A DNA stretch of 64,000 nucleotides from NCBI GenBank assembly GCA_035546615.1, contig DASZWM010000006.1, positions 32,001 through 96,000 of the forward strand, read 5' to 3'. Under the pieces are notes generated by a model that saw only the letters and a list, made by a program, of their open reading frames with translations, was not told the origin of the DNA and made no database searches. The stretch is from Minisyncoccota bacterium. GTDB lineage: Bacteria; Patescibacteriota; Minisyncoccia; Phycocordibacterales; SBAW01. Every line of letters begins with the position of its first letter. The stretch's first letter is position 1. Position numbers and translations under genes: made by a program. This document shows, one piece after another, positions 9,688 to 63,241 of the stretch.

Positions 9688-10122
9688 ATGCTTACCATCC
9701 GACTCCAGCGCCGCGGACGCAAGAACGACCCGTCTTTCCGGGTTATTCTCGTTGAGTCCAAGCGTGCAGCAAAGACCGGCAGCTTCCAGGAGGTCCTCGG
9801 CTCATACGACCCGCGCGTTGACCGCACCGACCTCAAGGCCGACCGCATCAAGCACTGGATAGGCATGGGCGCGACCGTTTCCGACACCGTGCACAACATC
9901 CTCATCAATCAGAAAGTCATCGAGGGCAAGAAGATAAACGTGCTCCCGCGCAAGAGCCCGCCGAAGAAGGCGGAAGAGGCGGCTGCAGCCGCTCCCGCAG
10001 CAGAAGCGGCAGCTCCTGAAGCAGCCGAGACCACTGAAGAAAAGGCAGAGGCGACGTCTCCCGAGGCAAAAGCGGAAGAAGCTGTGAATACCGAGGTTGC
10101 TGAGGAAACTCCCGCACAATAG
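9688..10122 (+). CDS. rpsP: 30S ribosomal protein S16 with an Ala/Glu-rich C-terminal extension.
   Basis: MLTIRLQRRGRKNDPSFRVILVESKRAAKTGSFQEVLGSYDP. Confidence 0.9.
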   Translation: MLTIRLQRRGRKNDPSFRVILVESKRAAKTGSFQEVLGSYDPRVDRTDLKADRIKHWIGMGATVSDTVHNILINQKVIEGKKINVLPRKSPPKKAEEAAAAAPAAEAAAPEAAETTEEKAEATSPEAKAEEAVNTEVAEETPAQ

Positions 10123-10235
10123 AATAGAGGCAGGGATTTATCATCAAACGAGTGAGGAACAAAAACGAGTTTTTGATTCCGAGCGAGAGCAGATGATACA
10201 GATTTCCTAATCTTTAATAAACTAAATATACTGAA

Positions 10236-10622
10236 ATGGCAGCAGAGAGAGATCAGGAGTTTTTGGAATTTGTCGTAAAAGGTCTTGTCGAGAATCCGGA
10301 CGCGGTTAAGATAACTCGCGCCGTAGACGAAATGGGCGTTCTTTTGACGCTCGACCTCCATCCGGATGACATGGGCAAGGTTATCGGCCGCTCGGGCAAT
10401 ACCGCCAAGGCAATACGCACGCTTCTTCGCGTCGTTGGCATGAAGCACAATGCCCGCGTGAACCTTAAGATAAACGAACCGGCAGGAGGGCTTCGCGATC
10501 CTGCTATGAGCGCTCCGAGCGGCGGCAGCGCTGCCCAGGGCTGGGACGGCAGCCACGAGGCTCCCGCAACCCCTGCGATGAAGTCGGTGGACGAGGCGAT
10601 GGACGAGCTCTCAAAGTTCTAA
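10236..10622 (+). CDS. KH-domain RNA-binding protein (YlqC/UPF0109 family), as typically found between rpsP and rimM.
   Basis: LVENPDAVKITRAVDEMGVLLTLDLHPDDMGKVIGRSGNTAKAIRTLL. A terminator hairpin GCCGCCGCAAGGCGGC + T-tract follows at 10640-10668. Confidence 0.8.
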   Translation: MAAERDQEFLEFVVKGLVENPDAVKITRAVDEMGVLLTLDLHPDDMGKVIGRSGNTAKAIRTLLRVVGMKHNARVNLKINEPAGGLRDPAMSAPSGGSAAQGWDGSHEAPATPAMKSVDEAMDELSKF

Positions 10623-10693
10623 TCTCAGATATTTTAGCAAAGGCCGCCGCAAGGCGGCTTTTGCTTTTCCCGCCCTCCTTTATACTGTGGAGT

Positions 10694-11500
10694 ATGTATC
10701 CTCCTGTTTCTGACCTGCTCGCAGAGCTCTCTTTATTTCCCGGAAGGGAAGACGGCTTGCGGAAAATTAAAAGGTATAGCAATGAGAAAGTAGCTTTTTA
10801 CCGCTCTTCTGATTTTTCTCATAGCAAGAGAGTGGCGTGGCTTGTATATAGTCTCATCCCATTATTATCAGAGGTAGATAAGACTTTTGATATAGGGCGC
10901 GCTGTGGCTATGGCGCTCGTGCACGACGATGCTGAACTGATAACGGGTGATCATCAAGCTGGTAATAAAAGCAAAATGACCAAAGAGCAGCTTGCTGCAA
11001 TTGCTGACGAAGAACGTGAAGCGATTGCCGCTTTGGCAAAGAGATATCCAAAAACTCTCGGCGGATATGTCTATCAGGACCTAGTACAAGATCTCGCTGA
11101 TCTAAAGAATTCTGAAGCTCATTTTGTTAAGTACTTTGATCGTTTTGATGCTTTGGGGGAGACTTACCATGAACTCTTTGCAGGGAATGTGGTTTGGACG
11201 CAAAACGTAGTTAATGAGTGGGGCATCATTCCCACACCTTTTATGTATTACTACGATAGGCTGCCGCCCATGGTTGAGAAGTATCCGATCCTGACTGCTT
11301 TAAAAGGAAAACATGTATTCTTCGATGTCCCTGAAGCCAGAGAATGGGAATCATTTGTCCTGACTCGTCAGCCTCATACAAAGGATTCAATACTTGCGTC
11401 TACTGGTCATAGGCAATATGATGCCTGGCGCTCTGTTGTTATTGATTCTGCAGATCAAGAAGAAATCGCAAATCTCTACTCTCAACAAGAATACCTATGA
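10694..11500 (+). CDS. HD-domain phosphohydrolase, YfbR-like 5'-deoxynucleotidase family; low-GC insert.
   Basis: HD motif LVHDDAELITGDH. GC is roughly 43% against ~62% in the flanks. It has its own -10 (TATACT) after the upstream terminator. Confidence 0.65.
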   Translation: MYPPVSDLLAELSLFPGREDGLRKIKRYSNEKVAFYRSSDFSHSKRVAWLVYSLIPLLSEVDKTFDIGRAVAMALVHDDAELITGDHQAGNKSKMTKEQLAAIADEEREAIAALAKRYPKTLGGYVYQDLVQDLADLKNSEAHFVKYFDRFDALGETYHELFAGNVVWTQNVVNEWGIIPTPFMYYYDRLPPMVEKYPILTALKGKHVFFDVPEAREWESFVLTRQPHTKDSILASTGHRQYDAWRSVVIDSADQEEIANLYSQQEYL

Positions 11501-12199: not shown

Positions 12200-12438
12200 G
12201 GTATATGAAACCAAAGCGGGGCAGATGATTGTGTATCGAGTGGCGCGGTTTCGATACAAACAGTGGTGAGTGCATCCACCTAAATATTGCTTGAGAAATC
12301 GGGCAAGGGAGCTTCATGCCCCCGCTATTTTTCGTGTTTTGCAGGTGTGGACAGCGTTCTTGTTTTTTTCAAAAAGTAGTGAAGGTTCGCCCTGTGCCTG
12401 CTCCCATTATTAAGTCCGCTCAACTTATTAAACCGCGC

Positions 12439-19293
<6,855 letters not shown>

Positions 19294-21399: not shown

Positions 21400-22632
21400 A
21401 TGGCTGCTAAAAAGAAGAAAAAGCCGGCCCCCCGTAAGGCGGGGTTGAAGGCGAAGAAGTTCCGCGCCGCCGCCGCAAAGCGCCGGGCAAAGCTCGCGCC
21501 CAAGAAGCCGGCCAAGAAGGCGGCGGCTCCGGCGGCCAAGATCAACCCGAAGATCGCCAAAAAGGTTGAGGAGCAGAACAAGAAGGCCGAAGCGCTTATG
21601 GCGCGCGGCCGCGAGCGCGGATTCGTCACCTACGACGAGATCTTGAAGGCGTTCCCGAATATCGAGACGGACGTCATGTTCCTTGAGGACCTCTATGAGA
21701 AGTTCTCGACCGCGCATATCGACGTGCTCGAAGGCGGCGGCATGCTTGAAATAGCCGAGGAGCCGGCAGAAAAGGGCTACTCGCGCTCCGACTCGCAGTA
21801 CGATTCCATCCAGATGTACCTGCGCGAGATAGGCAAGTACCCGCTGCTTAACGCGCAAAGCGAGCGCGATCTCGCAAAGCGCATTGTCGAGGGCGACGAT
21901 GAAGCCCGCAACCTGCTTGCCCGCGCGAACCTGCGCCTCGTGGTTTCCATCGCCAAGAAGTACGTAGGCCGCTCGCCGGACCTTACCCTTTTGGACCTCA
22001 TTCAGGAGGGCAACCTCGGCCTCTTCAAGGCCGTGGACAAGTTCGACTACTCCAAGGGCTTCAAATTCTCGACCTACGCCACCTGGTGGATACGCCAGGC
22101 CATTACCCGCGCGCTCGCCGACCAGAGCCGCACCATCCGCATTCCGGTGCACATGGTCGAGACCATCGCCAAATACAAGCAGGTCTCGCGCCGCCTTTCC
22201 CAGGATCTCGGCCGCGACCCGCTTGCGGAGGAAATCGCGCTTGAGATGGGCGTGGACGTCGACAAGATCTACCAGATAGAAAAGATCGACCAGGATACTA
22301 TTTCGCTTGAGAGCCCGGTCGGGTCCGACGACGGCGACGACGGCAAGTCGGTGCTCGGCGATTTCATAAAGGACGACAAGATACTCTCGCCGGACCAGGA
22401 AGTGGCCCGCCGCATACTCGCCGACCAGCTCAAGGAGATCCTTGAAGAACTGAGCCCCAAGGAGCGCGAGATCCTCAAGCTGCGCCACGGCCTTGAAGAC
22501 GGCATTTATCACACGCTTGAGGAAGTGGGGAAGAAGTTCGGGGTTACCCGCGAGCGCATCCGCCAGATCGAGGCGAAGGCCCTGGAGCGCATACGCACGC
22601 ACGAGAAGGCAAAGCGCCTCCGCAGCTACTAA
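21400..22632 (+). CDS. rpoD: RNA polymerase primary sigma factor (sigma70/SigA) with a Lys/Ala-rich N-terminus.
   Basis: Regions 1.2-4.2 are present: [16 protein letters not shown], the [25 protein letters not shown] region, the -10 recognition helix [14 protein letters not shown], and the region 4 HTH. It lies downstream of dnaG, the classic MMS operon arrangement. Confidence 0.95.
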
Positions 22633-22703
22633 TTCATCTCTATAATAAAAACCGCGCCGGATGGGGCGCGGTTTATGTTCTTGTAAACATTGGTGTCTCC
22701 TAT

Positions 22704-22988
22704 TTAGTCGGTAAAGTTCTCTTCTTCGAAGTCGTCCATCTCTCTGCCCATTTGCTTAAGCCCTTCTTCGAAAAAATTGTGGGCTCTCGCGATTTCTGGG
22801 CTTAGCAGGACACTATTCTTCTCGGAAAACGCTTTGAATTTCCGAAGAAGAAAAGGTACAGGTTCCATAGAAGGATTCCACTCTATTGTTCCGGGTAGGA
22901 ACAGGTGAGTGAGGACTACCGTGCCATCTGGTTTGGTTGCCCGCGTAAAATCCTCTTTTTTGAGGACATAGTTTTCAACTTCTCCCAC
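22704..22988 (-). CDS. Hypothetical protein, 94 aa, with an acidic C-terminus (...EMDDFEEENFTD); low GC.
   Basis: AAAGGAG lies 8 nt before the GTG start. It sits directly downstream of the ATP-grasp gene on the same strand. Confidence 0.45.
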   Translation of the reverse strand: MGEVENYVLKKEDFTRATKPDGTVVLTHLFLPGTIEWNPSMEPVPFLLRKFKAFSEKNSVLLSPEIARAHNFFEEGLKQMGREMDDFEEENFTD

Positions 22989-23047
22989 GAAATATCTCCT
23001 TTGGTTGCGGACGAAAAAGTGTGTCCGCTTTCTTTATATCATGATAC

Positions 23048-24295
23048 TTAAATCATGTCAAATTTTTTATTAGGAAGTGCCTGATACAAATCCCAAATAA
23101 CGGCTGCAACATTATGCGGCTCGCCTTCAAACGGCAGATGATGATTGTCGAAGAACGGCCGGCCGTTTGTCTCTATGACGCCGCACTTGGGCGTTTCCTT
23201 CCACGAGCGGCTGATATCGCTCGTGATAAAGTCGATGCCGACGATGGGCGCATGCAAGACCCGCGCTATCTCCTCGAACAGCGCCTTATTGTCGGGATGC
23301 ACTTTTTCCGTCACGTCGGTGGTGGTGCCGCCGAGCGCCCAGTTTATTTTAGGATGCAGATAGACAGCACGGCCTTGTTCGGGAATGCTCTGCAAAGTCA
23401 ATCCTTGAAGCTTGAGTTCCTGCTCGCCTAGTGCGGTTAGTTTGATATGCGAGAAGTACGGGCCCTGGCGCTTGGGATGCGTGTTCGCCTGCGCAATAAG
23501 TTCCTCTATAGTATGCTCGCCGTCGCCCACCACGCGCGGCGGGTCGCGACGGATGGTAGCGACAAGTTTTCCATCCACCAGCGTCGGCCGATAGACGGAG
23601 CCTTCGAGTTCTTCCTCTATGACGACCAGCGGAGAAACCTCTTTAGCTATTTTGAATCCGCGCTCAAGCGCAGTTTCGTCGCTGATATGGAGCGTGGTGT
23701 GCCGCGAGGCCGAGCCTTCGGCGGGCTTTGCTATGACCGTGCCGTTGATTTCCTTGAATATGCGGTTTGCCTTGGCGAGCGAGAATGCGGACTCGCCGCG
23801 GGCAACCGGCAGGCCGAGCGCCCGGAACTTCTTCTTCATGACGGTCTTGTTGTCTATCCACCAGACCGGCTGCTCCATCCGCGCGGGGAACGGGATGCTT
23901 TCGAATCCGATCCGCCGGCCGCCCGGAAACGTTGCCAGGAAGCTTGCGGTAGGGAGGCCGAGCAGGCGGAACTCCCGCATACGGATGCCGCGTTTTTTCG
24001 CTTCTTCCCAAAGGACCAGATCAAGCAGGAGCGTTTTATCATCCGGCTCTTCAAGCAGTTCCGCCAAACCAAGACGCGCTAAGCCCTCAGCCACGAGACC
24101 CTTGCTGTCCCGCTTCGGCAAAAGCCTGGAGGCGCCGTCCGTTATCCGCCCCATCAGCGCCGAAAAAGGCGTAGCGGCAAGGCCGATAAGAAGCGTGAAG
24201 TACTGGATACGATGATGTATCGCATCGCCGCCGCATTCGATGCAGGGTTTTGCGGCGGGAAGTGCGATGCGCATATTCCTAAAGCATACGGGCAT
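23048..24295 (-). CDS. ATP-grasp ligase resembling the cyanophycin synthetase N-terminal and ATP-grasp (G) domains; it lacks the Mur-ligase-like M domain.
   Basis: The stretch TVIAKPAEGSASRHTTLHI...VVIEEELEGSVYRPTLVDGKLVATIRRDPPRVVGDGEHTIEELI...HPKINWALGGTTTDVTEKVHPDN...IVGIDFITSDISR aligns motif-by-motif with the CphA G-domain. Confidence 0.75.
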   Translation of the reverse strand: MPVCFRNMRIALPAAKPCIECGGDAIHHRIQYFTLLIGLAATPFSALMGRITDGASRLLPKRDSKGLVAEGLARLGLAELLEEPDDKTLLLDLVLWEEAKKRGIRMREFRLLGLPTASFLATFPGGRRIGFESIPFPARMEQPVWWIDNKTVMKKKFRALGLPVARGESAFSLAKANRIFKEINGTVIAKPAEGSASRHTTLHISDETALERGFKIAKEVSPLVVIEEELEGSVYRPTLVDGKLVATIRRDPPRVVGDGEHTIEELIAQANTHPKRQGPYFSHIKLTALGEQELKLQGLTLQSIPEQGRAVYLHPKINWALGGTTTDVTEKVHPDNKALFEEIARVLHAPIVGIDFITSDISRSWKETPKCGVIETNGRPFFDNHHLPFEGEPHNVAAVIWDLYQALPNKKFDMI

Positions 24296-24333
24296 TCCGC
24301 GTACATGAAAAGTCCATACGGGTGGGGTAGTAT

Positions 24334-25149
24334 GTGCCTATGGAAGCGCCTATAAAGCACTGGAGCCACTCCAGCCTCATGGCGTACCTGCGCAATCCGC
24401 TTGCGTGGTACAAGCGCTACGTCGAGGAGGTCTACGATACGCCCTATACCCCTGCTTCAATTGTGGGCCGGGCCGGGCATATCGCGCTCGAGCATTTTTA
24501 CGGCGGGCTTCCCAAGGAGGCGGCCGTGGCGCTGGGGCTTGAGTACCTCCAGAAGGTCCCTGATTTTGAGATACATTTCGGCCGGGCATCCACCCGCAAG
24601 GCCAGGAAGGAAAAACGGCTCTCTATGGAGCGTGAATACCTCCAGGCGATCGGCTTTTTCCTAAAGCGGCCCCCAAAGTACAAGGTGCTCGGAGTCGAAG
24701 TGAAAGGGCTGGTGGAAGTGAAGGGCCTGCCGCTGCCGCTTAAGGCCGTATCGGACCTCGTGGTGAAATCTAAGGTTGATTCGCGGGGCGTGGATATTGT
24801 CGACCACAAGTTCGTCGACTCCTTCAGCCCGGCCCGCGAGTACAAGGCGCTGTTCGTCATCCAGGCGATATTCAACTACTACACCGTCCGCGAGAAGTTC
24901 AAGAAGCCGGTTAGGCGCTTTATCGTGCATGAGTGCAAGAAATCGAAGAACAAGGACGGCAAGAGCCAGCTCAGGACCTACAAAATAGACTTCCGCGAGC
25001 ACAAGGCCGAGTTCGCCGTGTTCCACCGGCTTGTTAAGGACGCGACCGCGGAGATAAGCCGGCCCCGCGTGTATCTGCCGAACCCGTCTGACATGTTCGA
25101 GGGCGAGAACTCATTTGATATCTACCGCCTCGGGCTGGGGGAAGAGTAG
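24334..25149 (+). CDS. PD-(D/E)XK superfamily nuclease, Cas4/RecB-like fold, no Fe-S cysteines seen.
   Basis: The N-terminal HWSHSSLMAYLRNPLAWYKRY and the VDIVDHK (D-x-K) motif are typical of PDDEXK_1-type nucleases. Confidence 0.5.
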   Translation: MPMEAPIKHWSHSSLMAYLRNPLAWYKRYVEEVYDTPYTPASIVGRAGHIALEHFYGGLPKEAAVALGLEYLQKVPDFEIHFGRASTRKARKEKRLSMEREYLQAIGFFLKRPPKYKVLGVEVKGLVEVKGLPLPLKAVSDLVVKSKVDSRGVDIVDHKFVDSFSPAREYKALFVIQAIFNYYTVREKFKKPVRRFIVHECKKSKNKDGKSQLRTYKIDFREHKAEFAVFHRLVKDATAEISRPRVYLPNPSDMFEGENSFDIYRLGLGEE

Positions 25150-60269: not shown

Positions 60270-60342
60270 TCCGCGGTAGCTCAATGGTAGAGCAGCTCCC
60301 TGTTAAGGAGTTGGTTGTAGGTTCGAGTCCTACCCGCGGAGC
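60270..60342 (+). tRNA. tRNA-Asn (anticodon GUU).
   Basis: Manual cloverleaf: acceptor TCCGCGG/CCGCGGA, D-arm GCTC-aatggta-GAGC, anticodon stem GCTCC/GGAGT with loop CTGTTAA (GTT), T-arm GTAGG-ttcgagt-CCTAC. No CCA is encoded. Confidence 0.85.
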
Positions 60343-61883
60343 ATAGAGCTGATTTTCGAATCCGAAGAAGCTTTTACCTTATGGGTAAAGGCTTTTTTCG
60401 GTTCGAAAGTATTTTCATCAAAATCAAGTCTTTCGTATAACTTTCGAACTGGGGTCTTTAGCTCATATTCCACTTTTCCGTCCTTCAGGGTGATGTGCTT
60501 AAAGAGATGCTTCAGGAGCATTCGCTTTTCAGCAGGCGTTCTCTTTGAGTAAATTTCCTTGGCTCTGGTGGCAAGTTCAAGAATGTTAAGTCCAAGTTCA
60601 AAGTATTCAGCCTCTTGGTCTTTCAGGCGGTCTAGCTGTGCAGTAAGCGCCTTCTGTTCTTCCTGAAGCATCTGGTTCTTGCCAGCCCAGAATTCATTCG
60701 AGATATCACCAGAAAGTTTATCGTCATAAAGCCTGTCTATCTTAATCTGCACTGCTTTGTATTGGGCGGTGAGGCTATTGATGACTGATTCCTTGTAAGC
60801 AATTTCCTCCGAATGATTTGCCTTGATGCGTTCACGAATTGCCTCAACATCCTTCTTGCTTAACTTGGCAAAAACATCCATGACGCTGACCAAGCCCGCC
60901 TCGATAACTTCTTCCCGTGTGTACTTCTTCTGTTTGCAGTCTTTGTAGTGATTGCAATGGCAATAAACATGGCCTTTCTGAATCTCGGAAGTAATGCTGC
61001 CACCACACTCACCGCATGAAATCATCTTCGAAAAAAGGAATTCCTTTCGAAGATAGTAAGGTGCTTTCTTTCTGATTCTTATTTCCTGAACTTGGTCATA
61101 AGTTTCTTTCGAGATAAGCGGCTCATGGTCACCCTTCATCAGTTTTCCTTTCCATGTAAACCAACCATAGTTGAAGGTATCACCCAACATTCGTTCAATC
61201 TGGCTCTTATAAAGCTTCTTACCGTAACGAGTACGAACGCCACTATCCCAAGCCATTTGAGCAATCGCCTTCATGGAGTATTGGCCAGTGGCATACGATT
61301 CAAGAAGTTTCTTTACTGCCAAATGTGTGTCAGGGTCTTTGATGAAATGCTTTCTTCCTTTCTCACCAACACTCAAATATCCATACTTAAATGAGCCTGG
61401 GTACATACCCTGTGATGCCTTCTCGCTCAAACCCTTATGCACTTCTTCAGAAAGGTTGTTGGTATAGAACCGAGCAATAGCCACTTTCATATCCCAGACA
61501 AGGTTCTCGTGCGCACGTGTATTCTTGCTTACGATGAAATTCTCTTTGACGAAGTGAACCGTTCGGTCAGGGGAAGACTGTACCCAGTCGTTTACAACAG
61601 CTGCATCTTTTAAGTTGCGAGTAAGACGGTCAATCTTCTCACAAAGAATATTCTCGATATCGTGCTTCTCAACATAAGCAAGCATTTCATAAAAAATGGT
61701 TCTGATTTGTTTACCACTCGCAGATTCAGTAATCCTGAATATCTTCGCCACCTCAAATCCTTTCTTTGAGGCGTATTCTTCAAGCAGCTTCTGCTGCGCA
61801 TCAAGAGAATAACCCGTGTCTTCTTGTTCACGTGACGATACTCGGCAGTAGATTACACATTTAGTCCTCATGTTGGTTGTCAT
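60330..61883 (-). CDS. Large serine recombinase (integrase): resolvase catalytic domain, recombinase domain, zinc ribbon and coiled-coil.
   Basis: Catalytic VIYCRVSSREQ (Ser nucleophile), the ...DRLTRN motif, a Cys cluster CGECGGS...CHCNHYKDC, and a C-terminal coiled-coil. Its 3' end overlaps the tRNA-Asn 3' end. Confidence 0.9.
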   Translation of the reverse strand: MTTNMRTKCVIYCRVSSREQEDTGYSLDAQQKLLEEYASKKGFEVAKIFRITESASGKQIRTIFYEMLAYVEKHDIENILCEKIDRLTRNLKDAAVVNDWVQSSPDRTVHFVKENFIVSKNTRAHENLVWDMKVAIARFYTNNLSEEVHKGLSEKASQGMYPGSFKYGYLSVGEKGRKHFIKDPDTHLAVKKLLESYATGQYSMKAIAQMAWDSGVRTRYGKKLYKSQIERMLGDTFNYGWFTWKGKLMKGDHEPLISKETYDQVQEIRIRKKAPYYLRKEFLFSKMISCGECGGSITSEIQKGHVYCHCNHYKDCKQKKYTREEVIEAGLVSVMDVFAKLSKKDVEAIRERIKANHSEEIAYKESVINSLTAQYKAVQIKIDRLYDDKLSGDISNEFWAGKNQMLQEEQKALTAQLDRLKDQEAEYFELGLNILELATRAKEIYSKRTPAEKRMLLKHLFKHITLKDGKVEYELKTPVRKLYERLDFDENTFEPKKAFTHKVKASSDSKISSMLRG

Positions 61884-62079
61884 TATAACATTTTTGTGTC
61901 TGATTAATTTGCTCTGTTAGCTTTTCTTTCTGCTTATCTTCAAAATCAAACTTAGCTAACAGGTCAAAGAAGCTAGCCAACGTCAGCACTTCGTCCTGTG
62001 ATTCCTCTACCTCATTCTTTTGTAGAGGCAGATTATTCATGGCCTTTCCCAAAGGCAGCGGGTAATCCGCTGCTGGCAT
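61861..62079 (-). CDS. Hypothetical protein, 72 aa, inside the element.
   Basis: ORF only. Confidence 0.3.
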   Translation of the reverse strand: MPAADYPLPLGKAMNNLPLQKNEVEESQDEVLTLASFFDLLAKFDFEDKQKEKLTEQINQTQKCYNDNQHED

Positions 62080-62677
62080 GTACTGCCAAATTATCTGAAG
62101 TATTCTGTGCCGTACTCTCTGAATTATGTTGGCGTATTGGTGCAGTTAGTTCTTCACCAACCGTGCAATTCAATTTGGCGCTTTTGTTCAATTGAGAGAG
62201 CAAGGAAATGACCTTTTCGACATCTATCTTGAAATACCTACGAGGTGGAATCCCTTTTCTTATGACTTCCAAAATCCCTTTCTGTTTGCATATAGCAATA
62301 GCGGTTTCCTGCTCTCGGCGAGAAAGACCAGTTTCCTCATACATTTCCTCGATGGTTTTGTAAGTCCAATTCGGGTCATGTCCTTTGCCATGCCAATAAA
62401 GCAACTGGCCAATAAGAACACCCGCTTTTACAGAGCCAAGCGCCTTCGAAAGACCAGCGTTATAAGCAACTGGCTTTTCGTGCAGTAGTTCATAAACTAC
62501 TCGTTGATATTTGTTCTTAGAATCTTTGGACATTAGGAAAGCCCACTCTTGGCTTGGCAGATTGAGGGAATCTGCAAAGCCAGCAATGGGCTTTGAAATG
62601 CGTCCCTCAACGCAAAACACCAGTACCTTTCGGATACTGGTGTTTGTTAAGGGTGCGTAAACAAAAATAACAAACAA
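62033..62677 (-). CDS. Hypothetical protein with a probable HTH region (element-encoded, possibly replication- or regulation-related).
   Basis: ...GLSRREQETAIAICKQKGILEV... The start is uncertain (probable MSKDSKNKYQ). Confidence 0.35.
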   Translation of the reverse strand: MFVIFVYAPLTNTSIRKVLVFCVEGRISKPIAGFADSLNLPSQEWAFLMSKDSKNKYQRVVYELLHEKPVAYNAGLSKALGSVKAGVLIGQLLYWHGKGHDPNWTYKTIEEMYEETGLSRREQETAIAICKQKGILEVIRKGIPPRRYFKIDVEKVISLLSQLNKSAKLNCTVGEELTAPIRQHNSESTAQNTSDNLAVHASSGLPAAFGKGHE

Positions 62678-63241
62678 GTATCATCGAAAGATGATGCTGT
62701 TTTATTACCTTTGTTCACGCTCACTTATCTTGCTTCTGCCGTTTTAATGATTGTTTTTCTAAGGTCAGGTAATCAGCCTGCCAGCAGTTGCAACGTAATA
62801 TTTAAGCTTAAACATGAATCCCCACTTATTAAATCATTAGGCTACGTACAAGATATGCCTTGAAACCAATCCTACCTCTATTGATGAATGACTTAAACCG
62901 CAGTTGGCTTGCGCCAGATTCGGTGACCAAGTTGTGAATGAACCTACAGATAATGATACAAAATCCGTGGCTTAATACAAGGCTAATTTCAAAAGTTATC
63001 AACAGAACTGTAGAAGCACCCCACTTACATAGCCTCTCTGTCGCTTTCTTGATATTATGTGAACACAACTGAATAAAAAAGTAGCCTAACCCCAGAGCAA
63101 TCTGGGCATGGCGAAAAAGTCCAATCAGACATACAAAACCCGTCATGGGGTTGTCTGATTGGCCGTATCGGGAAACTGGTACGAGAGGGTTCGCCCTCTA
63201 CCCGTGGCGGGTTTTGTGTACCCGTTCGGGAAGCCAATCAA

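Follow-up and report, generated by a model that had tools for sequence, protein, structure and literature searches.

The closest described relative of the enzyme discussed here is cyanophycin synthetase (CphA). In TeCphA1, a polymer-anchoring N domain (residues 1-161) is followed by a G domain (162-487) and an M domain (488-876) (PMC9427784). Arg309 stabilizes the acyl-phosphate, Arg323 and Asn394 belong to the site for the aspartate substrate and impair the enzyme when mutated to alanine, Gly456 makes an oxyanion contact, and Arg458 contacts the carboxylate of the substrate aspartate (PMC9427784). In the following, we describe a locus in a stretch of 64,000 nucleotides from a Minisyncoccota bacterium (contig DASZWM010000006.1, positions 32,001 to 96,000), to which we refer as the window. 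Here, a gene for a ligase related to the CphA G domain is followed, on the same strand, by a gene for a 94-residue protein with an acidic tail. The original prediction took the two for an acquired low-GC cassette, in which the ligase modifies or extends the C-terminus of the small protein or makes a poly-Asp product.

Our analysis leads to a different picture. In it, the ligase gene belongs to the native housekeeping set of the Paceibacteria and has been inherited vertically, and the small gene is a real but accessory gene that does not encode its dedicated substrate. That a native ligase and an independent insertion of the small gene have met at this locus appears very probable to us; the whole account that we favor, which includes the CphA-G type of the ligase and the unrelatedness of the inserted gene, is rather probable. 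In the literature on the candidate phyla radiation (CPR) and Patescibacteria, nothing specific to this ligase family was found, and the family is an undescribed stand-alone variant of the ATP-grasp type to which the G domain of CphA and the GshAB C-terminal domain belong. CPR genomes are tiny, and a 400-residue enzyme that is kept at 50-75% identity across the Paceibacteria is likely to be important.

A native ligase and a low-GC insertion

Both open reading frames (ORFs), of 415 and 94 codons, are real and lie at the positions originally given for them (Table 1). The ligase frame is open back to position 24295, and the NCBI record has 408 residues. In an alignment of 43 family members, the homologues start with MRxxLP, which corresponds to Met8 of the 415-residue ORF; the likely start is therefore at 24274, immediately 5' of which we find AGGA. 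The ligase is 100% identical to a 408-residue protein of a Candidatus Paceibacterota metagenome-assembled genome (MAG), and the small protein exactly matches VHD55_02955 of a Candidatus Paceibacterota MAG, both being encoded on a 208-kb contig.

The motifs on which the assignment to CphA had been based (VIAKP, VVIEEELEGSVYRPTLVDGKLVA, GDGEHTIEELI, LGGTTTDVT..HPDN and VGIDFITSDISR) are all present in the translation. In Pfam, the ligase has no significant match, the top one being GARS_A with an E-value of 0.18. Among the NCBIfam hidden Markov models (HMMs), it matches cyanophycin synthetase (TIGR02068, 3.5e-60, 203.9 bits, covering profile positions 212-469 of 862; NF010623, 203.4 bits), GshAB (NF002688, 1.6e-39) and N-acetylglutaminylglutamine synthetase (TIGR03103, 4.9e-37), the latter being the sole NCBIfam match to align from residue 95. 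RimK (TIGR00768, partial, 20.6 bits, 2.3e-4) and Ddl (NF002378, 17.3 bits, 1.5e-3) score far lower. The curated cut-offs of 850 bits for TIGR02068, 877 for NF010623, 143.4 for TIGR00768 and 243 for NF002378 are not reached. When the PDB is searched with phmmer, the ligase finds CphA2 (8fxh, 3e-41), CphA1 (7lgn, 1.5e-40; 7lg5, 1.5e-35; 7wac, 3e-33) and GshAB (3ln7, 5e-27). All PDB sequence matches place ligase residues ~148-404 on the G domain (148-404 on CphA1 212-478 with HMMER), and of the 642 residues of the best match, 8fxh, only 218-478 align.

These results are mirrored at the structural level. An AF2 model of the ligase, computed from the family alignment (pLDDT 85.3, pTM 0.85), yields 394 PDB matches in Foldseek at E<=1e-3, with ATP-grasp enzymes in each of the top 50 places listed. 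CphA2, CphA1 and GshAB lead with E-values of 2e-25 to 1e-18 over ~330 aligned residues (for instance 7ta5 with 2.4e-25 over ~330 aligned columns, and GshAB 3ln6 with 7.6e-21); LysX/ArgX, PsnB, Ddl and RimK are much weaker, with 1e-10 to 1e-7 (RimK 5zct 6e-8, TM 0.39; DdlB ~2e-8). The Mg/ATP ligands typical of the superfamily, E227-E229, D355, E375 and N377, are invariant in the ligase family. A grouping with Ddl or classical GshB is excluded by the HMM and Foldseek scores. By both NCBIfam and Foldseek, the ligase thus falls together with the G domain of CphA and the C-terminal domain of GshAB, and it is a stand-alone ATP-grasp carboxylate-amine ligase with a catalytic body homologous to these two domains.

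As originally proposed, the protein lacks the MurE-like M domain, which adds Arg in CphA1: it ends where that of CphA would start, ~10 residues past the G-domain match, and has no Mur-ligase match. The accompanying claim of a CphA N domain does not hold, given that residues 1-75 are covered by no HMM or Foldseek alignment; the G domain is borne out by HMM, PDB and Foldseek matches. In place of the N domain stands a family-specific region, which is composed of a CxxCG..H element, putatively a metal binder, a variable long helix (residues 28-56 in the AF2 model) and a short helix.

With more than 480 homologues of 52-75% identity over the full length in a set of 5.8 billion proteins, nearly all of them from Paceibacteria/Parcubacteria, and with a confirmed copy in at least 124 species-level genomes, the ligase family is almost confined to this group. 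Its gene order is conserved as well. The order found in the window, HisRS > RNaseH-like > DsbA > PD-(D/E)XK < ligase > rpoD < dnaG <, which we call type A, is common to L001/L081, L003, L006-L010, L012, L013, L016 and L049, where the ligases are 54-75% identical to that of the window. Moreover, the body of the ligase gene has a GC content of 58.0% (68% at third codon positions), compared with 57.9% for the window. Because of this taxonomic confinement, the conserved synteny and the inconspicuous composition, we regard the ligase as native.

Divergent from the ligase, the window encodes a PD-(D/E)XK (PDDEXK_1) exonuclease-like protein at 24334-25149(+), which matches phrog_1218 with 2e-11 and is kept at the same position in every type-A relative.

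What is foreign is a segment of 42.9% GC and ~460 bp, which lies between the stop of the convergent rpoD gene and the point at which conservation of the ligase ends. It contains the last ~15 codons of the ligase (..YQALPNKKFDMI*), a hairpin, a Shine-Dalgarno (SD) sequence, the 94-residue gene and a terminator. In an alignment with the syntenic loci L001, L003, L007 and L012, conservation ends at ..ATTTGGGATTTGTA (..IWDLY) and resumes at the 3' end of rpoD; the distance between the ligase and rpoD stops is -4 to 84 nt in the syntenic relatives and ~415 nt in the window. Over its final 47 nt, the ligase gene has a GC content of only 29.8% and encodes a non-homologous tail, ...QALPNKKFDMI. The notion of a low-GC acquired cassette thus fails for the ligase and holds for the small gene, albeit with other figures: its ORF has 45.6% GC rather than ~42%, and the window 57.9% rather than ~62%.

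We therefore envisage that an insertion of ~460 bp landed between the ligase and rpoD, where it replaced the last codons of the ligase and brought the 94-residue gene with it. The genes of the small protein's homologues have 46-52% GC and lie in loci of 44-55% GC, which fits acquisition from a CPR relative of lower GC. Around the insertion, we found no target-site duplications or terminal repeats beyond a 9-nt inverted repeat. This repeat is perfect (TAATAAAAA / TTTTTATTA, at 22643-22651 and 23064-23072) and lies near both edges; it is AT-rich and could have arisen by chance. According to this account, a small insertion has by chance brought the two genes side by side, and the apparent cassette is not a system.

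Ligase chemistry and the acidic-peptide module

To relate the ligase to CphA1, we mapped its residues by alignment to SuCphA1 (7txv, native numbering), with the residue roles taken from TeCphA1 (PMC9427784). Arg309 corresponds to R236 and Arg323 to R250, both invariant; Asn394 to the nearly invariant N318; and the magnesium ligands Asp431/Glu450 to the invariant D355/E375. Other positions have changed. The P-loop His267 is Ala196 in the ligase (Ala/Gly across the family), followed by an invariant R198-H199-T200; Gly456 is Phe381 (Phe/Tyr in the family); and Arg458 is replaced by Asp383, which is invariant and lies in the equally invariant P(F/Y)FDNHHLPF motif. Judged from these residues, the ATP-grasp chemistry appears intact, and the nucleophile pocket has been so remodelled that aspartate should be repelled. 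With an invariant Asp in place of the aspartate-binding Arg458, the synthesis of poly-Asp, or the addition of Asp, that had been considered for this ligase is unlikely.

By homology, the ligase would bind ATP-Mg through Asp355 and Glu375 and phosphorylate a substrate carboxylate; as with CphA and GshAB, this is most likely the C-terminal α-carboxylate of a peptide. Arg236 would steady the resulting acyl-phosphate, and the ligation of an incoming amine would complete the reaction. This amine is probably not aspartate, since the Arg458 position has become the invariant Asp of the FDNHH motif and the P-loop His is lost. Acyl-phosphate chemistry of the CphA-G type with a nucleophile other than Asp is thus, on sequence grounds, the likelier course.

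In most other genomes, the ligase is found in a second gene order, type B: [variable genes] ligase > ... trxB < ftsZ < ftsA <. In 44 of 75 species-level loci, it adjoins a module of a promoter-like TG-n-TAnACT, a leader of ~85 nt and an ORF for a hyper-acidic peptide. In 40 loci, the module follows the ligase, and in four (L022, L025, L043 and L047), it precedes it; in L050, L051 and L054, an inserted gene separates the ligase from the downstream module. The ORF has 30-64 codons, mostly 35-45, and follows the pattern M-x-D-D-T ... E-T-G-E-E-E-A-A (for example, MIDDTQVDGTVDGEETPVVPVEETTEEAPEEAPATEAGEEEAA). Its first codon position is G in 68% of cases, its entropy peaks at the third position in both start- and stop-anchored blocks, 30 of 31 distinct sequences end with TAA, and no consistent pattern is seen in the antisense frames; on account of this codon-position pattern, the uniform stops and the unconserved antisense frames, we consider it to be coding.

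The leader starts with an invariant AGGUCGAAUUGCCAGCCAAU, and its 5' end is predicted to lie at AGGUCGAA. It folds into a long helix, UGGCUUUGU/ACAAAGCCA, which shows compensatory changes at seven of nine pairs and encloses a variable apical hairpin (alignment A6 and covariance model R1; e.g. L032:4519-4603). The AUG of the peptide lacks an SD sequence and is preceded by a conserved AUUCUCC in its place. The module has no match in Pfam, and Rfam, run at its gathering threshold on 11 relatives, returned only tRNAs and noise; the leader may be an undescribed cis-regulatory RNA.

A metagenome scan with an 18-mer of the leader returned 17 genuine instances, all 17 with a ligase directly upstream and a peptide downstream. 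A further 29 matches were discarded as chance occurrences with unrelated flanks. In module-bearing loci, the ligases are 54-96% identical to one another. The other recurrent neighbours of the ligase are housekeeping genes only (PurF, Prs, MGMT, Sua5, TrxB and the like), so that the acidic-peptide module is its only specific recurrent neighbour.

Two observations touch on this module. In L025 (3142-3327), L043 (5146-5301) and L047 (2450-2602), where the module lies upstream, a small ORF of 50-61 residues is found 3' of the ligase (M..LSIIWEKLVHDLTLYE...YEEEERLHTEL), the C-terminal half of which is acidic. In the window itself, a ribosomal protein S16-like ORF at 9688-10122(+) carries an acidic C-terminal extension of ~50 residues rich in E, A, P and T (..EEAAAAAPAAEAAAPEAAETTEEKAEATSPEAKAEE..), which resembles the stand-alone peptide in composition.

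For the substrate of the ligase, two readings have to be weighed, and both are tentative. In the first, the product of the ligase would be a small molecule or a precursor of the cell envelope, for instance from dipeptide, thiol or osmolyte ligation, as with GshAB and N-acetylglutaminylglutamine synthetase, or from the addition of an amino acid to a stem peptide of peptidoglycan, and the acidic peptide would be a mere syntenic neighbour. We hold this to be possible, no more. These two enzymes are its next-best HMM matches after CphA, it is fully conserved in a clade without an adjacent peptide, it lies near trxB, ftsZ and ftsA in most genomes, and the peptide, with a promoter-like element and a leader of its own, need not be co-expressed with it. 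However, neither GshA nor an acetyltransferase or a Mur ligase is found among its conserved neighbours, all HMM scores stay far below the family cut-offs, and the module remains beside the ligase even though its position switches between downstream and upstream, as do all motif-centred metagenome instances.

In the second reading, the hyper-acidic peptide, where present, would be the best candidate for an acceptor; its being the acceptor is about as tentative as the small-molecule reading. We think it rather unlikely, though worth stating, that ligase and peptide constitute a new CPR system for the ligation of a ribosomal peptide, in which the C-terminal carboxylate of ...EEAA is activated. 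In such a peptide-ligation system, the peptide might be extended, as by RimK or tubulin tyrosine ligase (TTL), or attached to amines on other molecules, similar to Pup; the structured 5' leader would control the peptide, and the acid-tailed 94-residue protein might have been co-opted as an alternative acceptor in the lineage of the window. If confirmed, this would be the first peptide-ligation or tagging system known from the phylum.

Several points weigh against the account given so far. Our assignment of substrates to the ligase family is drawn from homology and gene neighbourhood alone. Neither the peptide (by HMM) nor the leader (by a pattern with three mismatches and by R1) is present in the 64-kb window or in any of the 10 type-A loci, and yet the type-A ligases keep every invariant residue despite having no adjacent peptide; either these genomes encode the peptide elsewhere, or the ligase does without it. 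The adjacency of peptide and ligase may be inherited synteny, since the block of ligase, peptide, trxB, ftsZ and ftsA is conserved as a whole. Furthermore, peptide-linked ligases have a median isoelectric point of 6.4, compared with 8.6 in the clade of the window; as they are not basic overall, there is no sign of charge complementarity with the peptide. Lastly, the 94-residue gene has the look of a substrate gene: it is on the same strand as the ligase, 59 nt away, and has its own SD sequence and an acidic tail.

The inserted 94-residue gene

The last of these points underlay the original prediction. Its SD sequence for the small gene is confirmed (Table 1), and the hairpin in the 59-nt spacer exists, although it is weak (-11.8 kcal/mol, z -1.8). 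We rejected this hairpin as a sense-strand terminator: it is followed by a T-run on the + strand only, and a U-run in the sense direction is absent. By contrast, the bidirectional terminator behind the gene is strong (-21.1 kcal/mol, z -5.6) and serves both the 94-residue gene (-) and the convergent rpoD (+). A scan of 22400-24500 for sigma-70-like promoters found no site, and Rfam at E<=1 found only tRNAs and noise within 22300-24500. With neither a promoter-like site nor a sense terminator in the spacer, the small gene is probably reached by read-through from the ligase promoter.

While a word-indexed search with the 94-residue protein returned only the protein itself, six relatives with E-values between 2e-18 and 4e-6 came from an exhaustive phmmer search of 1.84 billion representatives, and 13 proteins of 37-58% identity from a profile search. 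They share an N-terminal domain of ~75 residues with invariant D13, G22, T27, H28 and F54, modelled by AF2 as three strands and two helices (pLDDT ~90 for residues 11-60), followed by a disordered tail. Pfam, NCBIfam, PHROGs and PADLOC gave no match for the protein or its homologues, and neither did a fold search. The tails of the family are acidic and often aromatic, variable in length and sequence. The window protein ends in ...EMDDFEEENFTD, and thus has the C-terminal Asp from which an Asp-extending activity had been argued; among the homologues, this residue is not conserved (D, G, Y, S, K, R or F).

Could ligase and 94-residue protein nevertheless form a RimK/S6-like or CphA-like pair, in which the ..EEENFTD tail is modified or extended, or poly-Asp is built? 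The substrate-like arrangement described above, together with a spacer that carries neither sense terminator nor promoter-like site, is what such a pair would show, the homologues all have a disordered acidic tail, enzymes of the CphA-G type work on the C-terminal carboxylates of peptides, and a different acidic peptide adjoins many relatives of the ligase. We nevertheless consider the pair very improbable. The co-occurrence in other genomes on which the idea had been staked was not seen: by tblastn, none of the 85 loci fetched via the ligase contains a homologue of the small protein, and none of the 10 loci of its homologues (five homologues in seven distinct neighbourhoods; Table 1) contains a CphA-like ligase, so that the pair is known from this genome only. 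The syntenic relatives lack the 94-residue gene, and the ligase, which is older than the insertion, is conserved without it. In addition, tail sequence and terminal residue vary within the small family, and an invariant Asp stands where CphA1 has the Asp-binding Arg458. That the 94-codon ORF is no gene at all, and the low-GC segment only non-coding filler or the remnant of a decayed mobile element, would agree with the self-only result of the word-indexed search, the missing family and fold matches and the AT-rich 9-nt repeat near the insertion edges, but is the least credible reading in view of the 13 homologues with their five invariant residues, the well-modelled core, the SD sequence, the strong terminator and an open frame within AT-rich DNA.

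The remainder of the window holds a few features of separate interest. At 12316-19293(+), rpoB and rpoC are fused into a single ORF of 2325 codons, matched in the syntenic L001 by a product of 2285 residues with Rpb2 and Rpb1 domains. A low-GC island (~40-45%) at 60330-62700(-), which encodes a large serine recombinase-like protein of 517 residues (CVIYCRVSSREQ... at its N-terminus) and a protein of 214 residues, is probably an integrated mobile element. A further low-GC stretch spans 10000-11400.

Table 1. Coordinates of the features described in the text; positions refer to the window unless preceded by a locus number.
Feature	Position	Strand	Remarks
ORF containing the ligase gene	23048..24295	-	415 codons
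CphA-G-type stand-alone ligase gene	23048..24274	-	408 aa from ATG 24274; locus tag VHD55_02960
N-terminal CxxCG...H element	24212..24244	-	Cys18, Cys21, Gly22 and His28 invariant in the 43-sequence alignment
ATP-grasp body, equivalent of the CphA G domain	23081..24073	-	residues ~75-405
P(F/Y)FDNHHLPF motif	23129..23158	-	invariant; residues 380-389, holds Asp383
Low-GC insertion	22633..23094		42.9% GC, ~460 bp; between conserved ligase end and convergent rpoD stop
Spacer hairpin	23007..23028	-	6-bp stem, 10-nt loop; inside the 59-nt spacer
94-residue protein gene	22704..22988	-	94 codons; GTG start; AGGAG at 23000-22996; VHD55_02955; rare CPR family
Bidirectional intrinsic terminator	22649..22674		10-bp stem with 7 GC pairs; T-runs on both strands
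Acidic-peptide module, examples	L004:6264-6479		also L017, L021, L023, L030, L032, L041 and others
Acidic-peptide module 5' of ligase	L022:5749-5925, L025:1622-1815, L043:3630-3825		also L047
Homologue of the 94-residue protein	L086		amid small hypotheticals, near ParB and an HTH_17 gene
Homologue of the 94-residue protein	L087-L089		adjoins ResIII/SNF2 helicase, AAA_15/21 and SHOCT genes
Homologue of the 94-residue protein	L090		adjoins HisRS
Homologue of the 94-residue protein	L137		near def-fmt-hpf
Homologue of the 94-residue protein	L138-L140		adjoins ychF
Homologue of the 94-residue protein	L141		amid hypotheticals

Comparison with known systems

The G domains of CphA1 and CphA2 (7lg5, 7wae, 7lgn, 7ta5 and 8fxh) share with the ligase the ATP-grasp fold, including the lid and omega-loop modules, at ~26-32% identity over ~330 residues. 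The catalytic residues R309, R323, N394 and D431/E450 of CphA1 have their counterparts in R236, R250, N318 and D355/E375, and a similar chemistry is to be expected, in which an acyl-phosphate would form on a peptide C-terminal carboxylate before an amine attacks. Unlike CphA1, the ligase has neither N nor M domain and carries the CxxCG..H element; furthermore, the family departs from it at His267 (Ala/Gly), Gly456 (Phe/Tyr) and Arg458 (Asp383). CphA2, which polymerizes β-Asp-Arg, consists of N, G and truncated M domains, and the flanking N and vestigial M domains are again missing from the ligase. No cyanophycinase gene was seen among the recurrent neighbours of the ligase at the loci examined. 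Annotation pipelines that label the ligase 'cyanophycin synthetase' are wrong. As a stand-alone G domain with a rebuilt pocket (Arg to Asp plus His-His) and an N-terminal Cys/His element, the ligase gives biochemistry a concrete target.

The C-terminal domain of GshAB (GshF) and the TIGR03103 enzyme belong to the same ATP-grasp subclade as the ligase, and they add an amino acid to the α-carboxylate of a short peptide. In contrast to them, the ligase stands alone, with neither a GshA nor a GNAT domain fused to it or encoded nearby.

The likeness to RimK/S6, LysX/ArgX/LysW, tubulin tyrosine ligase and PafA/Pup is one of concept only, namely that of a carboxylate-amine ligase for which the acidic C-terminus of a gene-encoded protein is the substrate. 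RimK and LysX are no more than distant fold relatives (TIGR00768, 2e-4; Foldseek, ~1e-8 to 1e-10), and PafA is, to our knowledge, not an ATP-grasp enzyme. The window lacks the peptide ending in ...ETGEEEAA; beside the many relatives of the ligase that have it as a neighbour, it would fit a role similar to that of the RimK or Pup substrates.

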